From the NCBI GenBank assembly GCA_048885525.1, contig JBHLLP010000022.1:1-56732 (forward strand): a DNA stretch of 56,732 bases, in the 5' to 3' direction. A program made the translations under genes and the position numbers. The DNA is from Candidatus Hermodarchaeota archaeon. Its GTDB lineage: Archaea; Asgardarchaeota; Lokiarchaeia; Sigyniarchaeales; SOKP01. How positions within the stretch are numbered: position 1 is the first letter of the stretch; each line of letters starts with the position of its first letter. Positions 40,781-48,464 of the stretch are shown here, piece after piece. The notes below the pieces were generated by a model that had not been told where the DNA came from, searched no databases, and saw only the letters and a program-made list of their open reading frames with translations.

Positions 40781-42226
40781 ATGTTATTAAGTGTAATTAT
40801 TATCCTTTCAAGCTTTATCGGAGTAATTCTTTTTATTGTAACAGAAAAGATGAATAGAGCAATTGTATCATTATTGGGGGCATTAGTTACTTATTTTGTT
40901 TTAATCTTTCTTGAAGGATTAGATTTTTCAGTAATTGTTGATCTATTATTTAGTTCAAGTGAAGATGGTTTTGTAAATTTGCATTCTTTGATTTTAATTA
41001 TAGGAATGATGATGATAGTACAAATCTCACATGAAGTTGGAACTTTTCAATTTATCGCAGGAAAACTAATTAAACTCTCAAAAGGAAAGCCTCTTCGTCT
41101 AATGATTATATTTTGTTGCGTAACGGTACTTATATCAGCAATTTTAAATAATATTTTGACAGTTATCATTATAATACCACTTACTATTACAGTTTCAAGA
41201 ATTTTAAATATAAATCCTTCTCCATATATTCTTACTCAAGCAATATTAGTAAACATAGGCGGTACAGTCTTTTCAATTTCCTCAATTCCGAATATTTTAA
41301 TCACAACTTATGCAGGCATAGAATTTATAGAATTTTTTATTAACGTTGGAGTAATTTCTTTCATTGTTTTCATATTTACTCTCTTATTTTTCATTCTACT
41401 CTATAAGAAAGAGTTAATAATACCAGAAGAAGGTCAAAAAGCATTAAAAGAGTTTGACGTTTGGAATGTCGTTCAAAATAAAAAGTTGTTATATCAATCA
41501 TTAATTACTTTAATTACTTTACTAATTTTACTCACAATTATTCCATCTTCAATTCTATCTCCAGATATTATTGCTCTAACCACCGCTATAATTTTAATAA
41601 TTATCACGAGATTAGAACCAAGAGAAATTATAAGTAAAATAGATTTTGAGTTGATCTTCTATTTATTAGGTATTTTTATTATTGTAGGAGGATTGGAGAT
41701 AACAGGAGCAACAGAAGTTCTCGGAAATTTTATTTTAAATATTGGAGGAAGTAATCTCTTTTTACAACTTCTCTTAATTCTATGGTTTTCAGCTTATTTA
41801 AGTAGTTGTATTGATAATATACCTATAACTAAAGTTTTAATCCCTGTTGCAGATACTATGACAGAAACAGCACTATTAACCACTAGAAAGCAAGTTTTTT
41901 ACAGTCTTGCATTTGGGGCAAATTGGGGTGATAATTTGACACCATTAGGTGATAATATTCTTGTAGTGAATATTGCCGAACAGAATAAACGTCCAATAAG
42001 CTTTAAATCCTTTTTCAAATTAGGATTTTTTACATCTAATTATCAATTATTAATTCTTTCACTCTATTATAGTTTAATTTTTTATTTTCAAATTGGGATT
42101 ATTATTTTAGGGATTGTTGGTTTAATTCTAGTAGTATTCTACTGTTTGAATAAATTTGGTTCAAAAAAGATTAAATCTCAAATCTATGCTTTTAACAATA
42201 AATTAAGAGAAATTATAATAAGGTGA
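40781..42226 (+). CDS. ArsB/NhaD/P-protein (IT superfamily) permease
   Basis: Many TM helices; SAILNN, NIGG, IDNIP and GANWGDNLTPLG. Confidence 0.88.
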   Translation: MLLSVIIILSSFIGVILFIVTEKMNRAIVSLLGALVTYFVLIFLEGLDFSVIVDLLFSSSEDGFVNLHSLILIIGMMMIVQISHEVGTFQFIAGKLIKLSKGKPLRLMIIFCCVTVLISAILNNILTVIIIIPLTITVSRILNINPSPYILTQAILVNIGGTVFSISSIPNILITTYAGIEFIEFFINVGVISFIVFIFTLLFFILLYKKELIIPEEGQKALKEFDVWNVVQNKKLLYQSLITLITLLILLTIIPSSILSPDIIALTTAIILIIITRLEPREIISKIDFELIFYLLGIFIIVGGLEITGATEVLGNFILNIGGSNLFLQLLLILWFSAYLSSCIDNIPITKVLIPVADTMTETALLTTRKQVFYSLAFGANWGDNLTPLGDNILVVNIAEQNKRPISFKSFFKLGFFTSNYQLLILSLYYSLIFYFQIGIIILGIVGLILVVFYCLNKFGSKKIKSQIYAFNNKLREIIIR

Positions 42227-42233
42227 TCCTGAG

Positions 42234-42872
42234 ATAGTATTTAAAAATATTCTAAGAATAAAAGCAGCTTTACCAGAAGTTAAACATGTGGCCATGTTCT
42301 ATAATAATGGCACAATTTTTCAAACTACATTTGAACAAGAGATTAATATCCCAAAACTAGGTGAAAATTTAGCAGAAGTATTGAATCACATAAGAAGACT
42401 GTATGAAATTTGTAATTATAATTTTGAAGAATATAAAAAAGTGATTTTTGAAACTGATGATATGTCTATTATTATTTTAAAACTTGGTGAGGATAGTAAT
42501 ATCGCCCTTTTTTTCAAGAAGGAGGAAGAAAAAGAATTAAAGTTAACTGCAATAAAACGATATATGACTAGAATTGAAGAATTAATCGATATGGATGAAA
42601 GAGAACTGATAATACAAGATATAATTGCAAGAGAAGAAGAAATTAAAAATATAAAAGAAGATCTTCATAAAAAAATAGAAATAATTACGAATTTGCGTAA
42701 TGAATTAGACAGTGTCGAGAAGGGGATAGTTGAAGGTGATCAGAAAAAACTCATGAAAGAATTAAATGATCTAGAACTTGAATGTAAAAATTTAAACCAT
42801 GAAATAGAAAAAAAAGATATCGAAATCGAACAATTAAAAGAAAAAATAGAAAAAAGCCATAAACAAGCTTAA
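42234..42872 (+). CDS. Roadblock/LAMTOR-like domain fused to a C-terminal coiled coil (212 aa if started at ATA 42234)
   Basis: The extension IVFKNILRIKAALPEVKHVAMFYNNGTIF provides the helix-strand-G start of a roadblock/profilin-like fold. VIFETDDMSIIILKLGEDSNIALFF follows, then ~95 aa of heptads. Confidence 0.6.
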   Translation: MVFKNILRIKAALPEVKHVAMFYNNGTIFQTTFEQEINIPKLGENLAEVLNHIRRLYEICNYNFEEYKKVIFETDDMSIIILKLGEDSNIALFFKKEEEKELKLTAIKRYMTRIEELIDMDERELIIQDIIAREEEIKNIKEDLHKKIEIITNLRNELDSVEKGIVEGDQKKLMKELNDLELECKNLNHEIEKKDIEIEQLKEKIEKSHKQA

Positions 42873-42886
42873 TAAAAATACAACAA

Positions 42887-43087
42887 TTATGGTACTAAAT
42901 GTTGTAATATGCCTAAAATTACGGGAATTAAAAAAATCATAGTACCAACAATGAGTATTATTAATATATAGTATTCCTCTGATTTTTTTTTCAACAATTT
43001 GATAATTCCCGTTATACCTATAATAAAAGAGATTATCAATAGTCCAAATGAAAGCAAAATTAAAATTAATAGCTGATTTACCACCAT
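42887..43087 (-). CDS. 66-aa two-TM membrane protein
   Basis: Two hydrophobic helices separated by KKKSEE. Confidence 0.6.
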   Translation of the reverse strand: MVVNQLLILILLSFGLLIISFIIGITGIIKLLKKKSEEYYILIILIVGTMIFLIPVILGILQHLVP

Positions 43088-43211: not shown

Positions 43212-43868
43212 TTAGCCACTCAATTCAGCAGGTCTGACTCTTTCTCTTTCTGCTAGTTTTTCTGAGAGCTCTTTCTTAAGATCAGCTAATTTATTTTGTT
43301 TTTCAACTATATTTTTATTTATTGTCATTGCCTCAGTTTCAAGCTTAGTTAGATCTTTCTGAATTTTAAGATATGCTTCCTCTGCTTTAGTAACTTTCTC
43401 ACCAGGAGCATTGGTATTTACTAATTTTACATAAGCTCTTTGCTTTTTTGCTAGATTATCTCTTTCTTTAGCTTCCTCAAGTTTTTTATTAGCAAGTTTT
43501 ACTTTCACTTCAGCAATTTCAATTTCAATATTCGCAATTTTTCGTTGAACCTCTGCGATTTTTGTTTGAGCTTCAGCAACTTTTTCATTGTATATCGCGA
43601 GAGATTTCTCAGCATTTAAGTTCTCATCATTAAGTTTAAGAAGATTTTTAACTTTTTCTTTGTCTTCAACTAATTTCCTAGTCTTCTCAGCTAATCGCTC
43701 TCGTATTTTCGCTAAATCAAATTCGCTTTTTACTAACTCTTCTCTAGCTTTAGCCCTTTTTACAGTTTGTTTAGCTAAAACTTTCATTTCATCTGCGGTA
43801 TCTTTTTCTTGCTTTGCGATATTCGAATTTTCTTCAGCTAATTTTTCAATATTTTTAGCTTCTTCCAT
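43212..43868 (-). CDS. All-helical coiled-coil protein A (paralog of 44901..45569)
   Basis: Continuous heptads (VAEAQTK IAEVQRK IANIEIE IAEVKVK LANKKLE); SD-like GGTGG upstream. Confidence 0.85.
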   Translation of the reverse strand: MEEAKNIEKLAEENSNIAKQEKDTADEMKVLAKQTVKRAKAREELVKSEFDLAKIRERLAEKTRKLVEDKEKVKNLLKLNDENLNAEKSLAIYNEKVAEAQTKIAEVQRKIANIEIEIAEVKVKLANKKLEEAKERDNLAKKQRAYVKLVNTNAPGEKVTKAEEAYLKIQKDLTKLETEAMTINKNIVEKQNKLADLKKELSEKLAERERVRPAELSG

Positions 43869-43962
43869 ATAAATCCACCATTTTTGTTTGATTTTTATTT
43901 TTAAATTTTTATTTTAACTTATTTTTTAAAAATGATTTTATTTATTTACTAATCTAAATAGG

Positions 43963-44133
43963 TTAACTATAAATTTCATCATAATTCTCTGAATCTTCTT
44001 CCTCATCATCTTCATAATCCCAATCTTCTTCCCCATCAGAATCCTTACTTTCGTAATCTCCATCATTTTCATTAGAATAATCATCATATTCATAATCATA
44101 TTTCTTCTTCTTTTTTTTAACTTCATTTTTCAT
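43963..44133 (-). CDS. 56-aa Lys6/acidic-Tyr intrinsically disordered microprotein
   Basis: MKNEVKKKKKKYDYEYDDYSNENDGDYESKDSDGEEDWDYEDDEEEDSENYDEIYS*; GAGGA upstream and a minus-strand TATA box at 44204-44197. This frame replaces the 43938..44126 shadow ORF. Confidence 0.7.
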   Translation of the reverse strand: MKNEVKKKKKKYDYEYDDYSNENDGDYESKDSDGEEDWDYEDDEEEDSENYDEIYS

Positions 44134-44194
44134 TTTACGTGATTTTCCTCATATTTATTGTTTTTCTATATACATTACTGCATAATGATTACAT

Positions 44195-44261
44195 AGTATT
44201 TAAATGTTTTCATATGAAAACATTCAAGTAGATCGATAACTTTAAATACTCTGAAAACATT
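44195..44261. promoter_or_regulatory. Divergent promoter with mirror-image TATA boxes and a perfect 22-bp palindrome
   Basis: AGTATTTAAA (44195-44204) and TTTAAATACT (44241-44250) are exact inverted copies. AATGTTTTCATATGAAAACATT (44203-44224) is a perfect palindrome, with an extra half-site TGAAAACATT at 44252-44261. Confidence 0.75.
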
Positions 44262-44312
44262 TTTTTATATAAGAAATTTAAGTCAAAATAGAAGAATATA
44301 CTACATTTTAAA

Positions 44313-44882
44313 ATGAAAAAAACATCTCCTAAAAAACAGAGTAATTTTCTTGGATTCAGGCTTTCAGAAGGAATAATCAATAAACTAGATTTAATTGCAA
44401 AACAACAGAATAAGACACGTGGCTTGGTTGCTAAAGATGCTATTGAACAATGGCTTAATTTAGAATTGTTCAACCAAACTAATGAAATGATTATGATGTC
44501 GAAGTCAATTTTCTCTAAAATTCTTTCAAAATTAGATGATTCTTCTTTAGATATAATAGCAAAAGATTTTGCTGATTTATTTTCAGATATAATGAAATTC
44601 TTAACAGCTAAACTAATGAATGAAGAAACATTGAAATCATATACAGACTTTCTAATTAATTTTTTTGGTAGAAATGGATTAAAATGGTTTAATACCCTTG
44701 ATATCCAGACTAAGGAGAACTCATTCATTTTTAGAGGTTTACATGATATGGATGAAGTTTATTCAAACTTTTTCACAAAATTCTACAAATTTCTATTATC
44801 TGAATATTTTGACTTAGATTTTACCACTAAAATTGAAGAAAAAACGTCAAATTTAATTCATCTAGAATTTAAACGTAAATAA
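44313..44882 (+). CDS. Ribbon-helix-helix (CopG-like) transcription regulator with C-terminal putative ligand-binding domain
   Basis: FLGFRLSEGIINKLDLIAKQQNKTRGLVAKDAIEQWL is a typical RHH. A ~140-aa alpha/beta C-terminal domain follows. Confidence 0.8.
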   Translation: MKKTSPKKQSNFLGFRLSEGIINKLDLIAKQQNKTRGLVAKDAIEQWLNLELFNQTNEMIMMSKSIFSKILSKLDDSSLDIIAKDFADLFSDIMKFLTAKLMNEETLKSYTDFLINFFGRNGLKWFNTLDIQTKENSFIFRGLHDMDEVYSNFFTKFYKFLLSEYFDLDFTTKIEEKTSNLIHLEFKRK

Positions 44883-44900
44883 ATAAAAAGGTAAGATGAA

Positions 44901-45569
44901 ATGGAAAATTTAACACAAATTGAAAAGGAGACTCAACACAATCTTAAAATAGCACAATATGAAAAAGAACTTGCCCAAAAGCTAAAAATTAATGCTTTAG
45001 CAGAAATTAAAAAGGCAGAAGCTAGAGAATCTTTACTAAAAATTGAATATGATTTAGCTGAAATTAAAAAAGATTTAGCGATTAAAAGAAGAATTTTGGT
45101 TAAAGAAAAAACACAAATTAAAAAGAATCAGATTTTAGACTTTTCGGATGAAGAACTAAAAATTGAAAATAATTATGCGGTTTATAATGAACAGATTTCA
45201 AAAAATCAGAAGGAAATTGCTGAAGTTAATAAAAAAATTGCCTTAGTAGAAAAACAAATTGCTGAACAAAAATTAGGATTAGCTAAAGAAAGATTAGAGG
45301 TAGCAAAAGCACGAGAAAAATTAGCTAATACACAAAATAAATACTTGAAAGTTGCTCGAGCACAAGCGTCTGAAAATAAAATTTTGAATGCGAAAAATAA
45401 CATAGAAAATCAAAAGAAAAAGTTATTAAAACAGAAAAATGACGTAATTGAAAAGGAAAAAGATGTAAGAAAAAAAGAAAATAAATTAGCTGATTTAAAG
45501 AAAGAACTTTCTTCGAAATTTGCTGAAAGAGAAAAAATAAGGCATCCTGGAGTTATCGTTGCTGGATAA
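44901..45569 (+). CDS. All-helical coiled-coil protein B (paralog of 43212..43868)
   Basis: Collinear with protein A, e.g. NKLADLKKELSSKFAEREKIR vs NKLADLKKELSEKLAERERVR. Confidence 0.85.
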   Translation: MENLTQIEKETQHNLKIAQYEKELAQKLKINALAEIKKAEARESLLKIEYDLAEIKKDLAIKRRILVKEKTQIKKNQILDFSDEELKIENNYAVYNEQISKNQKEIAEVNKKIALVEKQIAEQKLGLAKERLEVAKAREKLANTQNKYLKVARAQASENKILNAKNNIENQKKKLLKQKNDVIEKEKDVRKKENKLADLKKELSSKFAEREKIRHPGVIVAG

Positions 45570-45607: not shown

Positions 45608-46690
45608 TTAAATCCAATTTTTCCTTTTAAAAAATATAAGCATTGTAATGGCAATAAGAATCATTATTATAATTAAAATGGGATACGCAACTGGATTTGA
45701 GAATTCTGGCATATGAATGAAATTCATTCCATAAAATCCTGTTAAAAATGATAAAGGAATAAATACTGTAGAAATAATGGTTAACACTTTCATTATATCA
45801 TTCATTCTATTGCTTACACTTGATAAATACATATCCAACATTCCAAAAACAATATCTCTATAGTTTTCCAATTGATCACTTATTCTGTAAATATGGTCAA
45901 ATATATCTTTGAGATAAATCTGCAACTCATCGCTAATAAGTTTAGTCTGCTCTCTTTGTAATTTATTAATAACCTCTCTTAGTGGCCAGATTGATTTTCT
46001 TAAATCAATATTAGCTCTTTTTAATCGATATATTGATTGCACTAGTTCAGGTTTTGGATTTTTTACTAAAATATCCTCTAATTCATCAATAATTTCACCA
46101 ATAATTTCTAAAATTAAAAAGTAATTATCTACAATAACATCAATCAATGCATAAGCTAAATAATCAGCTTTCATTGATCTAATTCTGCCTCGTGCTCCTC
46201 TAATCCTTTCTAAAATTGGATTAAAAGTATCACTTTCTAATTCTGAAAAAGTTATCACAAAATTTTCTGCAAGAATTAAACTAATTTGTTCACTTTCAAA
46301 AATCTCATTTATCTCATCCCAAAGAAGTTTTCTAAGTACAATAAAAATAAAATATCCATAATCTTCAAATTTTGGCCGTTGATTAGGATTTAAGATATCC
46401 TCTAAAACAAGAGGGTGAATATTAAATTGATTGCCAATTTCCTCAATTCTTTCTACTTCAGTTAATCCTGTAATTTCAATCCATCTGACAAAATCTTTTT
46501 CTATAACCTGTAAATTTTTAACAGCTTCAACTTCCTCTTTAATTAAATATTTATCTTTATTATAATCAATAACTTTTATTCTTGTAGGTACTTTTGGTTT
46601 CTCACCTGCATATATTAATGTTCCAGGAGGTGTACCAATCTTTTCTGTTTTCTTTTTAACTTTGCTAAGTCTTTTTGATAGACTTTTAAT
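45608..46690 (-). CDS. corA: CorA magnesium/cobalt transporter (360 aa if started at ATT 46690)
   Basis: YGMNF..MPE signature. The frame stays open for 144 codons upstream of the tracked GTG and contains the CorA N-terminal motifs KIGTPPGTLIY.G, WIEITG and IHPLVLEDILN..QRPKFEDY. Confidence 0.92.
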   Translation of the reverse strand: MKSLSKRLSKVKKKTEKIGTPPGTLIYAGEKPKVPTRIKVIDYNKDKYLIKEEVEAVKNLQVIEKDFVRWIEITGLTEVERIEEIGNQFNIHPLVLEDILNPNQRPKFEDYGYFIFIVLRKLLWDEINEIFESEQISLILAENFVITFSELESDTFNPILERIRGARGRIRSMKADYLAYALIDVIVDNYFLILEIIGEIIDELEDILVKNPKPELVQSIYRLKRANIDLRKSIWPLREVINKLQREQTKLISDELQIYLKDIFDHIYRISDQLENYRDIVFGMLDMYLSSVSNRMNDIMKVLTIISTVFIPLSFLTGFYGMNFIHMPEFSNPVAYPILIIIMILIAITMLIFFKRKNWI

Positions 46691-46757: not shown

Positions 46758-47570
46758 TTATTCAATCCTTTTAACTAAACTAGGTGTACTTATGTCGATG
46801 TTATATTTTTGTACAGAGGTAAACACAGATGATCGTAGTTCTCCTAATATTCTTAGCATTGATTTTATTTCCCTAATAAACACAAAAAGGGTATATTCAA
46901 CCGCAAAACTTTGAAAATCTGTTATTGCTACGAATGGTTTTGGATCATTTAGAATTTCAGGAATAGATTCTGTAGCTTCTAATAAAGCCCTTTCTACTTT
47001 ATCTTTGTCTTCAGTGTAATCTGCTGTGATTTTAATTCTTCTTCTAACTACATTTTTTTTTCCAAGGTTTTCTGTTTCCTCTGATAATAATTTCTGATTA
47101 GGTGTTGAAATTATTATACCATCAAAATCAACTAATATTGTAAACATTAGTTTTATTTCACGAACTTCAACCATTCTGTCCTTGTAAATTAAGTAATCCC
47201 CAACCACAAATGGTCTACTTGTCATTATTATAATACCAGCAATTGCGTTTCCAAACGTATTAATCGCAGCAAAACCGATAATCGTACCTCCAACTAGCGT
47301 AAATAATGATGTAATTAAACCAATTGCTTCGACAAATTGTACTAAAATCATACTGATAATTACTAATACAATTATTACTTTTACAATTCGTTGTAAGTTT
47401 CTTGCTGTCTGTTCTTCTAATTTTTCCTGTTTCTTAAGTCTATTAATTTGCTTTCTAAAAACTATATAAATTAGCCATCCGATTATTATTGCTAGTGCAA
47501 CAGCTAATATATTAATTATATTATCAGCTATCCATCCAAAAATCATATCAATTATGTTCTGAAAAATCAT
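46758..47570 (-). CDS. mscS: Small-conductance mechanosensitive channel
   Basis: 3 TM helices, GFAA...N..AG....RPF.VGD, PN and a C-terminal beta/alpha domain. Confidence 0.9.
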   Translation of the reverse strand: MIFQNIIDMIFGWIADNIINILAVALAIIIGWLIYIVFRKQINRLKKQEKLEEQTARNLQRIVKVIIVLVIISMILVQFVEAIGLITSLFTLVGGTIIGFAAINTFGNAIAGIIIMTSRPFVVGDYLIYKDRMVEVREIKLMFTILVDFDGIIISTPNQKLLSEETENLGKKNVVRRRIKITADYTEDKDKVERALLEATESIPEILNDPKPFVAITDFQSFAVEYTLFVFIREIKSMLRILGELRSSVFTSVQKYNIDISTPSLVKRIE

Positions 47571-47819: not shown

Positions 47820-48464
47820 TTAACTAGTTTTCCTTCTTTGAAATCTCTTTAAATTTTTCTGCCTTTTTTGTTCTAAAGGTTTCATATAACCCAATAAATC
47901 ATCAAATACTATTTTTTGGTGTAAATGTGGACGAAACACAAACTTATAATATTTTTTTTTCCAATAGAAGCGTAGACTATTAAGATATAATAATATTTCT
48001 TTAATTTGCTGAGGTTTGATTTCAGTATATGAAGTTACTACATTTTCTTCGGTATTAGATTCGACATTCCTTTTTAATAAACTACCGTCTATTTTTAAGA
48101 TGTAGACAGTTCCATTTAAATAAGCATTATTTTCTTTATTGTAAGTCAATCCTATGTATTGAGCATATAACTTAAAATTTTGTCTGATTTTAGCTTCTAA
48201 GTAATTTTTTTGAATTACATCACGATTTTTATTCTTTATTAAAATTTTTAATTCTGAATCCTCCATTTCTCCTTTGTTTGTTTGGAGCATTTCATAATAT
48301 CTTACTTGTAGACTAGTAAATATTAAACTCTCGATATCACTATAAAAATCTTGTACTTCAAGTGCTAAAATTCTATCATCTTTGATATGATCCCATATTA
48401 TAAAGAAAAGTACGGCAATAGAAACGCCTAAACTAATATATACAAGGATATCCTCGGGAGGCAT
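47820..48464 (-). CDS. Hypothetical protein with N-terminal TM anchor
   Basis: ILVYISLGVSIAVLFFIIW, then a soluble helical domain and a basic tail. Confidence 0.7.
   Translation of the reverse strand: MPPEDILVYISLGVSIAVLFFIIWDHIKDDRILALEVQDFYSDIESLIFTSLQVRYYEMLQTNKGEMEDSELKILIKNKNRDVIQKNYLEAKIRQNFKLYAQYIGLTYNKENNAYLNGTVYILKIDGSLLKRNVESNTEENVVTSYTEIKPQQIKEILLYLNSLRFYWKKKYYKFVFRPHLHQKIVFDDLLGYMKPLEQKRQKNLKRFQRRKTS

Follow-up and report, generated by a model that had tools for sequence, protein, structure and literature searches.

A divergent module of paralogous coiled-coil proteins, an acidic microprotein and a ribbon-helix-helix regulator in one uncultured family of Asgard archaea

Background

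What joins two related coiled-coil proteins, a strongly acidic microprotein and a DNA-binding regulator that lie side by side in the genome of an uncultured Asgard archaeon? The locus in question spans positions 43,212 to 45,569 of contig JBHLLP010000022.1 of Candidatus Hermodarchaeota archaeon (assembly GCA_048885525.1). The whole stretch of this contig that was analysed, 56,732 nucleotides (nt) long, is called the window below. An earlier note, made from the DNA letters only, had described the four genes as a self-contained, co-regulated and undescribed system, perhaps a filament or scaffold with an acidic adaptor. Our analysis indicates that the module is very likely a real co-regulated regulon. 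We further propose, at a probability of roughly 0.45, that this regulon is autoregulated, with a sensor-bearing ribbon-helix-helix (RHH) repressor gating two divergent operons for a BAR-like dimeric scaffold and its acidic partner.

Gene content and paralogy

The list of open reading frames (ORFs) of the window confirmed the four ORFs of the module, and their coordinates match the positions given in the earlier note (Table 1). The leftward operon encodes the acidic microprotein and then coiled-coil protein A; the rightward operon encodes the RHH regulator and, after a gap of 18 nt, coiled-coil protein B. A and B aligned from end to end with 43% identity (E = 5e-41) and a single 2-residue gap, confirming that they are collinear paralogs placed on opposite arms. 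No enzyme or known family had been recognised in A, B or the acidic protein at first reading, and searches of Pfam, NCBIfam, PADLOC and PHROGs agreed: for all three proteins nothing rose above threshold, and only coiled-coil noise was returned.

Divergent promoter and candidate operator

The spacer between the two operons carries TTTAAATAC on both strands, at ~44196-44204 (minus) and ~44241-44249 (plus), forming mirror-image TATA boxes, and the perfect palindrome AATGTTTTCATATGAAAACATT sits between them, so the symmetric promoter suggested at first reading is borne out. An inverted-repeat operator at the regulated promoter is a feature of the RHH class, and a candidate for it is present here in the form of a perfect 22-bp palindrome abutting a TATA box. 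The chance expectation of the palindrome in the window was 0.12. A whole-genome regulon search over 3.58 Mb revealed no second site within 3 mismatches, and the regulator gene is single-copy in the genome. Therefore, we read the palindrome as one candidate operator for one dedicated regulator. Because this candidate operator sits on the region of the TATA box and B recognition element, the regulator should repress, and its predicted role is that of a repressor.

The promoter core is conserved across genera, and the remaining spacer has diverged. Specifically, orthologous spacers carry the conserved block ATCGAYAACTTTATATAC at the position of the rightward TATA box and TTGATATCAT at that of the third half-site. 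The operator consensus, TGTT(T/A)TC-N4-GA(A/T)AACA, lies directly beside TTTAAATA and is kept in divergent loci. Moreover, the element also accompanies RHH genes where the gene order differs, among them loci with another gene after the promoter.

Distribution and conserved gene order

The search set comprised 201 genomes of the phylum, namely the source genome (G000), 40 further genomes of its family and 160 genomes of 26 other families. The A/B family was found in the source genome and in 25 of the 40 other sampled members of its family, with one to five copies per genome. The 160 genomes of the other families gave two marginal matches only, both in ORFs of more than 1000 amino acids (aa). 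All named records of the family come from metagenome-assembled genomes of uncultured Promethearchaeota/Promethearchaeia, and no match from a named cultured Asgard archaeon was found in the genome collection. Among sequencing runs, only sediment-metagenome DNA runs contain this stretch, and no RNA run is listed for it.

The complete arrangement, with RHH and then B on one arm and the acidic gene and then A on the other, was found in at least 13 species-level genomes, and further copies of the module were cut by contig ends or rearranged. The synteny expected across Asgard genomes thus holds within one uncultured family of Promethearchaeia. Such a recurring arrangement in many species is more than chance. 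The module has not been described so far, as the earlier note had supposed, although the reach it had implied was overstated; the module is lineage-restricted and assembled from known kinds of parts.

In the family tree, the A-type and B-type proteins formed separate clades, each with several genera, and the B-type genes lie next to those for CorA or MscS channels and the RHH regulator. The gene maps likewise showed CorA, often with MscS, usually beside B, and the genes for a small two-transmembrane protein, a roadblock-like protein and a permease usually beside A. Every sampled genome carrying an A-type gene also had a B-like gene (11/11), and about ten genomes had a single family member. This pattern suggests that a homodimer of the coiled-coil family is probably functional by itself, A being an additional partner.

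Since the genomes are kin, the module counts are not independent, and one explanation is that the four genes are neighbours by descent only. The regulator would then control itself and perhaps the acidic gene, and A and B would be nearby structural coiled coils with no joint function. Confinement to one taxonomic family, in which synteny is not independent evidence, would agree with this, as would one genome with two unrelated genes between RHH and B and the many coiled-coil paralogs without an RHH gene. However, the RHH gene adjoins coiled-coil genes in at least four paralog clades with differing gene orders, and the intergenic gaps are often as short as 2-47 nt. Moreover, the candidate operator, unique in the genome, directly adjoins the TATA box from which the operon with a terminal coiled-coil gene is read, even where an Hsp20 gene is inserted. 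We consider mere neighbourhood by descent quite improbable; the conserved, genome-unique operator and the recurrent pairing of the RHH gene with coiled-coil genes argue for the self-contained, co-regulated module that had been proposed.

Some variants of the arrangement were also observed. In a sister genome (G174, contig 8; L026:8866-11326), two genes split the usual tight pair of RHH and B; they were assigned by eye as a HAD-like hydrolase gene and a 528-aa pyridine-nucleotide-disulfide oxidoreductase-like gene. Extra tandem coiled-coil copies lie in or beside the module at L047:1186-2663, L048:1358-2737, L067:3992-5385 and L036:3978-5340, and bring some species to five family members per genome.

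A regulator with an RHH domain and a sensor-like domain

The assignment of the first rightward gene to the RHH regulators was upheld by three kinds of evidence. Pfam RHH_1 was detected in 13 of the 35 members of the regulator family (best E = 4e-4), homologs carry the NCBI name "CopG family ribbon-helix-helix protein", and the fold of the N-terminal part matched RHH proteins. In the AlphaFold2 model of the regulator (mean predicted local distance difference test score, pLDDT, 79.9), residues ~8-57 gave VIA alignments with RHH antitoxins, PutA, NikR and CopA at Z 4.6-5.6. The N-terminal strand-helix-helix DNA-binding domain is thus present by Pfam, VIA and NCBI naming.

Residues 58-189 matched a different group of structures, with 108-127 residues aligned in each case. 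The best VIA matches were BcsD (Z 9.8), the TRAPP core (8.0) and the phenol-sensing domains of DmpR/PoxR (7.7), followed by H-NOX (7.5), a Thorarchaeota TRAPPC3 (7.3) and the V4R protein MJ1460 (7.1). The Foldseek matches of the regulator were weak (E at least 5e-3). V4R, H-NOX, Bet3 (TRAPP) and BcsD-like domains have related alpha/beta folds, often with hydrophobic ligands. By these matches of middling strength, the regulator may resemble one-component regulators with V4R sensors, such as DmpR, PoxR and XylR, in a C-terminal alpha/beta fold of the V4R/H-NOX/Bet3 type; unlike these, its family has no Pfam V4R match. It shares the RHH fold and a palindromic candidate operator at its own promoter with the repressors CopG, NikR and PutA, and NikR, in which an RHH domain is combined with a ligand-binding domain, follows the same logic. 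No published description was found of an RHH domain joined to a V4R-like sensor fold.

A role of the module in toxin-antitoxin function, in defence or in a mobile element was also considered, with the RHH protein as an antitoxin-like regulator and the coiled-coil proteins as effectors. Antitoxins typically contain RHH domains, the RHH part of this regulator matches antitoxin structures (Z ~5), and the number of paralogs differs between genomes. Against such a module stand the failure of PADLOC and PHROGs to return any family above noise, the stable chromosomal setting between housekeeping transporters in many species, and the lack of an integrase, repeats or a composition shift at the locus. 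Additionally, no enzyme or toxin fold was seen, and the regulator has a putative sensor domain. A module of this kind is therefore very improbable.

Fold of the coiled-coil proteins

A monomer model of A was made with AlphaFold2 from a 45-sequence alignment. The model (pLDDT 94.5; predicted template modelling score 0.82) comprises helices 2-72, 81-151 and 156-210, which pack as a three-helix antiparallel bundle with helices of ~70 residues and not as an extended two-stranded rod. The filament suggested as an example at first reading is not supported by this fold: A is predicted as a compact bundle whose best fold matches are BAR domains, and not as an extended coiled coil of the filament-forming type.

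No Foldseek match to A reached E <= 1e-3 (best E = 3.5e-3), and the list consisted almost wholly of BAR-superfamily chains. In the all-against-representatives alignment, the BAR domain of SNX5 came top (Z 13.0), followed by FAM92A1, the IMD domain of MIM, ACAP4 and Mvp1, and further down by an I-BAR protein, GAS7 and Lsp1. A second-look alignment gave arfaptin (Z 13.2; root-mean-square deviation, rmsd, 5.1; 193 residues aligned), SNX5 (Z 13.1; rmsd 3.8; 182 aligned), endophilin (Z 12.6) and FAM92A (Z 12.2), and its first 24 matches were all BAR chains. In the ESM Atlas, A matched the Pil1, SNX1 and FAM92 clusters with template modelling scores of 0.60-0.69. As Z values up to ~13 occur for helical bundles, we call the fold of A BAR-like and not a proven BAR domain.

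The earlier note had put forward other structures for comparison. Those of tropomyosin, intermediate filaments and MFP hairpins were not among the best fold matches, and PspA/ESCRT-III was absent from the best 50 matches of the three fold searches; this does not exclude them. The EmrA adaptor hairpin gave a partial match to A (Z 9.3 over 123 residues), and Pfam PspA_IM30 and Snf7 gave none to A or B.

Among known proteins, the BAR superfamily (arfaptin, SNX1/SNX5, endophilin, FAM92A/CIBAR1, Pil1/Lsp1 and I-BAR/IMD) is matched by A in several respects. Both have ~200-220 residues in three long antiparallel helices, as judged from the model of A; whole-domain alignments of A reach Z 11-13; and A and B carry a net positive charge. 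Unlike these proteins, A and B lack an H0 amphipathic helix and attached PX, PH or SH3 domains, and no sequence homology to the superfamily was detectable in them. Sequence-based searches agreed with this separation. The most distant members of the A/B family matched no BAR Pfam family, the family profile retrieved only designed coiled coils from the PDB sequences, and a language-model look-alike search with A yielded no usable match. Longer or fused forms of A were sought, and none was found.

BAR-domain proteins are on record in Asgard archaea (PMC10307638; PMC13716822). The Asgard CIBAR/FAM92-like BAR family (PF06730; ~210-220 aa; N-terminus MFKKFMD...) resembles A and B in size, three-helix class and lineage. 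It was found in 13 of the 40 sampled genomes of the same archaeal family, four of which also carry the A/B module, and it was not found in the genome that carries the window. It differs from A and B in lying at other loci and in belonging to a different sequence family, and in the loci inspected neither an RHH regulator nor an acidic microprotein is linked to it. By sequence, A and B are a family distinct from the known Asgard BAR proteins.

Predicted dimer of A and B

The interaction of A and B that the earlier note had expected was also predicted by modelling. The complex of A and B scored an ipSAE of 0.76 in each of three runs, compared with 0.00 for the best of three controls; among reference cases, 58 of 80 solved complexes and 2 of 110 mismatched pairs came up to that mark. 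The runs had at least 96% of contacts in common, and the pLDDT of the partners was at least 84. The contacts are antiparallel, with residue pairs that sum to ~86, which places a two-fold axis at about residue 43 of helix 1. This axis coincides with the most conserved motif of the family, AKARE with the invariant L45.

The predicted interface is formed by helix 1 together with the C-terminal half of helix 3. BAR dimers use these elements as well, and the predicted antiparallel dimer may be a further likeness to the BAR superfamily. A heterodimer of paralogs, as predicted for A and B, is also found in SNX1/SNX5. In the contact list the two monomers overlap almost completely, suggesting a compact rod of ~12 nm; the lack of long arms, read from the same list, sets the predicted dimer apart from the BAR superfamily. 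Taken from these models, A and B are probably a dimeric three-helix bundle.

The acidic microprotein

The acidic ORF is open at the same position in at least 20 genomes and encodes 49-73 aa. Its products share an N-terminal Lys run, YDYEYDDY, an acidic tract and an almost invariant C-terminus, D-(E/D)-I-Y-S. The microprotein gene is preceded by a conserved GGAGG-like ribosome-binding site, and 24-172 nt separate this gene from A across loci. A resemblance to the acidic-Trp motif of Arp2/3 was considered and rejected, as the Trp is missing in several orthologs and the C-terminal DEIYS is nearly invariant. The microprotein might act as an antagonist or chaperone of basic proteins, or as an anti-repressor.

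A second poly-acidic microprotein of 44 aa is encoded elsewhere in the source genome (G000 contig C48:8116-8250, minus strand). It consists of 70% Asp and Glu, begins with an N-terminal KKK, carries repeated EDWDDDD and ends in DDDY, and its gene lies beside unrelated genes. Trp-containing acidic ORFs similar to it occur near coiled-coil paralogs in two other loci (L028 and L041).

Neighbouring genes and a link to stress

CorA, MscS, the permease and the roadblock-like protein are recurrent neighbours of the coiled-coil family. The anion, Mg2+ and mechanosensitive transporters that had been noticed in the flanks were all identified by Pfam, as CitMHS/ArsB, CorA and MscS. The permease gene adjoins the roadblock-like gene in 28 loci, and in the window its stop lies 7 nt before the proposed ATA start of that gene. 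This likely start, at 42234, follows 7 nt after AGGTGA, which overlaps the permease stop. Reading from this ATA adds 18 codons before the listed GTG, and the added residues agree with the N-terminus MVFKNILRIKAALPEVKH of homologs, which start with ATG. The roadblock-like gene was found in 33 related loci. Its reading as a roadblock protein with a coiled coil was only partly upheld: hhalign comparison with the 13 Robl_LC7 domains of the same genome gave weak support (P = 0.0087; 79 collinear columns; a shared LPEVK motif), and no Pfam match beyond coiled-coil noise was obtained. At least 13 Robl_LC7 domains in this genome score above the Pfam cut-off (for example C3:17256-17522 and C51:7122-7358). 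Expansion of Robl_LC7 is typical of Asgard archaea.

The small protein downstream of A, noted earlier as a two-transmembrane protein, is indeed strongly hydrophobic, and its homologs keep this place in several genomes. Before its listed GTG, the CorA frame stays open over ~147 codons that include no ATG, GTG or TTG, and the CorA homologs are 363 aa long, suggesting that CorA is probably intact with a non-canonical start. Two non-canonical starts, those of CorA and the roadblock-like gene, thus lie within 5 kb. In addition, window positions 47820-48464 (minus strand) encode a protein of 214 aa that has a single hydrophobic segment, at its N-terminus, and belongs to no Pfam family; it recurs by coiled-coil paralogs and MscS/CorA in six other loci (L051, L065, L078, L081, L082 and L088).

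Four species have an Hsp20 gene (Pfam E = 2.3e-25) inserted after the operator-bearing promoter and before the coiled-coil gene, and in two of these four it follows the acidic ORF. Both this Hsp20 gene and the neighbouring CorA and MscS genes point to stress, be it heat, osmotic or membrane stress. The envelope or osmotic stress role suggested at first reading gains support from the same observations, CorA and MscS being the commonest neighbours.

These data bear on another explanation, in which A and B are soluble stress or scaffold proteins without a membrane role. As basic helical bundles, they could have nucleic acid or client proteins as their binding partners; the acidic microprotein would in that case be a nucleic-acid mimic, a histone-chaperone-like partner or a "Hero"-type shield, and Hsp20 a fellow proteostasis factor. 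Basic A and B opposite a hyper-acidic disordered partner, Hsp20 in the same operon in four species, the lack of a membrane-anchoring feature in A and B, and a fold match within the chance range of helical bundles would all suit this explanation. However, the commonest neighbours are membrane channels and transporters and a small two-transmembrane protein, the best whole-domain matches are consistently membrane-binding BAR domains and not nucleic-acid binders, and the net charges of A and B are moderate for DNA-binding proteins. We regard a purely soluble role as somewhat unlikely.

Table 1. Features of the module and its flanks, with positions in the window
Feature	Position	Strand	Description
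CitMHS/ArsB-type permease of the ion-transporter superfamily	40781-42226	+	Pfam CitMHS E = 3.7e-73, ArsB E = 1.3e-15
Roadblock/LC7-like protein	42234-42872	+	N-terminal domain of ~120 aa, then coiled coil of ~90 aa
66-aa protein with two hydrophobic segments	42887-43087	-	Downstream of A; grand average of hydropathy 1.80
Coiled-coil protein A	43212-43868	-	218 aa; net charge +6; isoelectric point (pI) 9.1; A-type clade in tree
Acidic microprotein	43963-44133	-	56 aa; net charge -17; pI 4.05; opens the leftward operon
Leftward TATA box (for the acidic gene and A)	44195-44204	-	TTTAAATAC within the conserved spacer core
Candidate RHH operator	44203-44224		Perfect 22-bp palindrome AATGTTTTCATATGAAAACATT; directly adjoins the leftward TATA box
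Rightward TATA box (for the RHH gene and B)	44241-44250	+	TTTAAATACT; inverted-repeat pair I1
Third half-site	44252-44261	+	TGAAAACATT; right after the rightward TATA box; direct repeat D5
RHH regulator	44313-44882	+	189 aa; RHH domain and C-terminal V4R/H-NOX/Bet3(TRAPP)/BcsD-like alpha/beta domain
Coiled-coil protein B	44901-45569	+	222 aa; net charge +15; pI 9.6; paralog of A; B-type clade
CorA Mg2+ channel	45608-46690	-	Extended frame: Pfam CorA E = 1.2e-68; most frequent neighbour of the coiled-coil family
MscS-type mechanosensitive channel	46758-47570	-	Pfam MS_channel_2nd E = 1.4e-12, MS_channel_3rd E = 2.5e-07; recurrent neighbour

A model of the regulon

In the autoregulated regulon that we propose, the one-component regulator, with its RHH and V4R/H-NOX-like domains, would bind the 22-bp palindrome between the back-to-back TATA boxes and, once bound, would block both promoters. 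A signal at its C-terminal domain, possibly a hydrophobic ligand or a stress-related protein partner, would free the regulator from the palindrome. Its release would turn on both operons, yielding the acidic microprotein and then A on one side and the RHH regulator and then B on the other. A and B would pair in antiparallel fashion, with helix 1 and the last part of helix 3 as contact surfaces, and so form a compact dimer of six helices. This dimer may coat or stabilise the anionic cytoplasmic face of the membrane, or membrane proteins, under heat, osmotic or mechanical stress, and the acidic microprotein may keep the basic proteins soluble or in check.

The part of this model that casts A and B as a BAR-like membrane or stress scaffold is a possibility that we hold only tentatively. 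A more far-reaching version appears unlikely. It would make A and B an archaeal BAR-like branch, forming a heterodimeric, stress-induced coat that senses or buffers membrane tension together with MscS, CorA, the two-transmembrane protein as anchor and the roadblock-like protein as adaptor. In that version, the acidic microprotein would be a lipid-mimicking inhibitor or chaperone, and the whole, controlled by an RHH repressor that senses a ligand, would correspond to the membrane-stress systems of the eisosome or Psp type.

Several results weigh against the proposed regulon with a BAR-like scaffold. Long helical bundles reach Z values up to ~13 through their common arrangement, as the alignment tool itself cautions. 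The Pfam families BAR (PF03114), Vps5 (PF09325) and FAM92 (PF06730) had no match in A, B or the locus. Aligned by hhalign with the Asgard CIBAR-like BAR family, the A/B family gave P = 0.033 over 46 non-collinear columns, and a profile search of 1.84 billion representative proteins returned ~45 full-length family clusters and then generic long repetitive coiled coils. Neither A nor B has an amphipathic N-terminal helix or a transmembrane segment, and their predicted dimer would be a compact rod rather than a long crescent. Moreover, the complex prediction was unable to separate the heterodimer from homodimers of close paralogs, and the fold matches of the sensor domain are middling in strength. 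Finally, all the genomes come from one family, so the gene order partly reflects shared descent.

As a functional analogy only, the proposed regulon resembles the Psp/Lia envelope-stress systems. Both would be dedicated, stress-linked regulons with a locus-encoded regulator, coiled-coil effectors of ~220 aa and an adjoining small membrane protein. Unlike the hairpin of PspA/ESCRT-III, A is predicted to be a closed three-helix bundle, and the regulator combines RHH and putative sensor domains instead of being an enhancer-binding protein or a two-component system.

Significance

Asgard archaea have dynamic membranes and protrusions, and the shaping and protection of these membranes bears on the origin of eukaryotic membrane remodelling. 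As the module belongs to one uncultured family and no homology of A and B to eukaryotic BAR proteins is shown, it has little direct bearing on eukaryogenesis. The set is experimentally tractable: A and B are small and soluble, with a confident BAR-like model and a predicted heterodimer, their acidic partner has 56 residues, and the regulator comes with a 22-bp candidate operator, all of which could be produced in E. coli. If A and B do not bind membranes, the module would still be a new archaeal stress regulon with a new regulator architecture, an RHH domain combined with a V4R-like sensor. If they do, a BAR-like architecture would occur in at least two unrelated-looking sequence families of one archaeal lineage, one of them under dedicated stress control.

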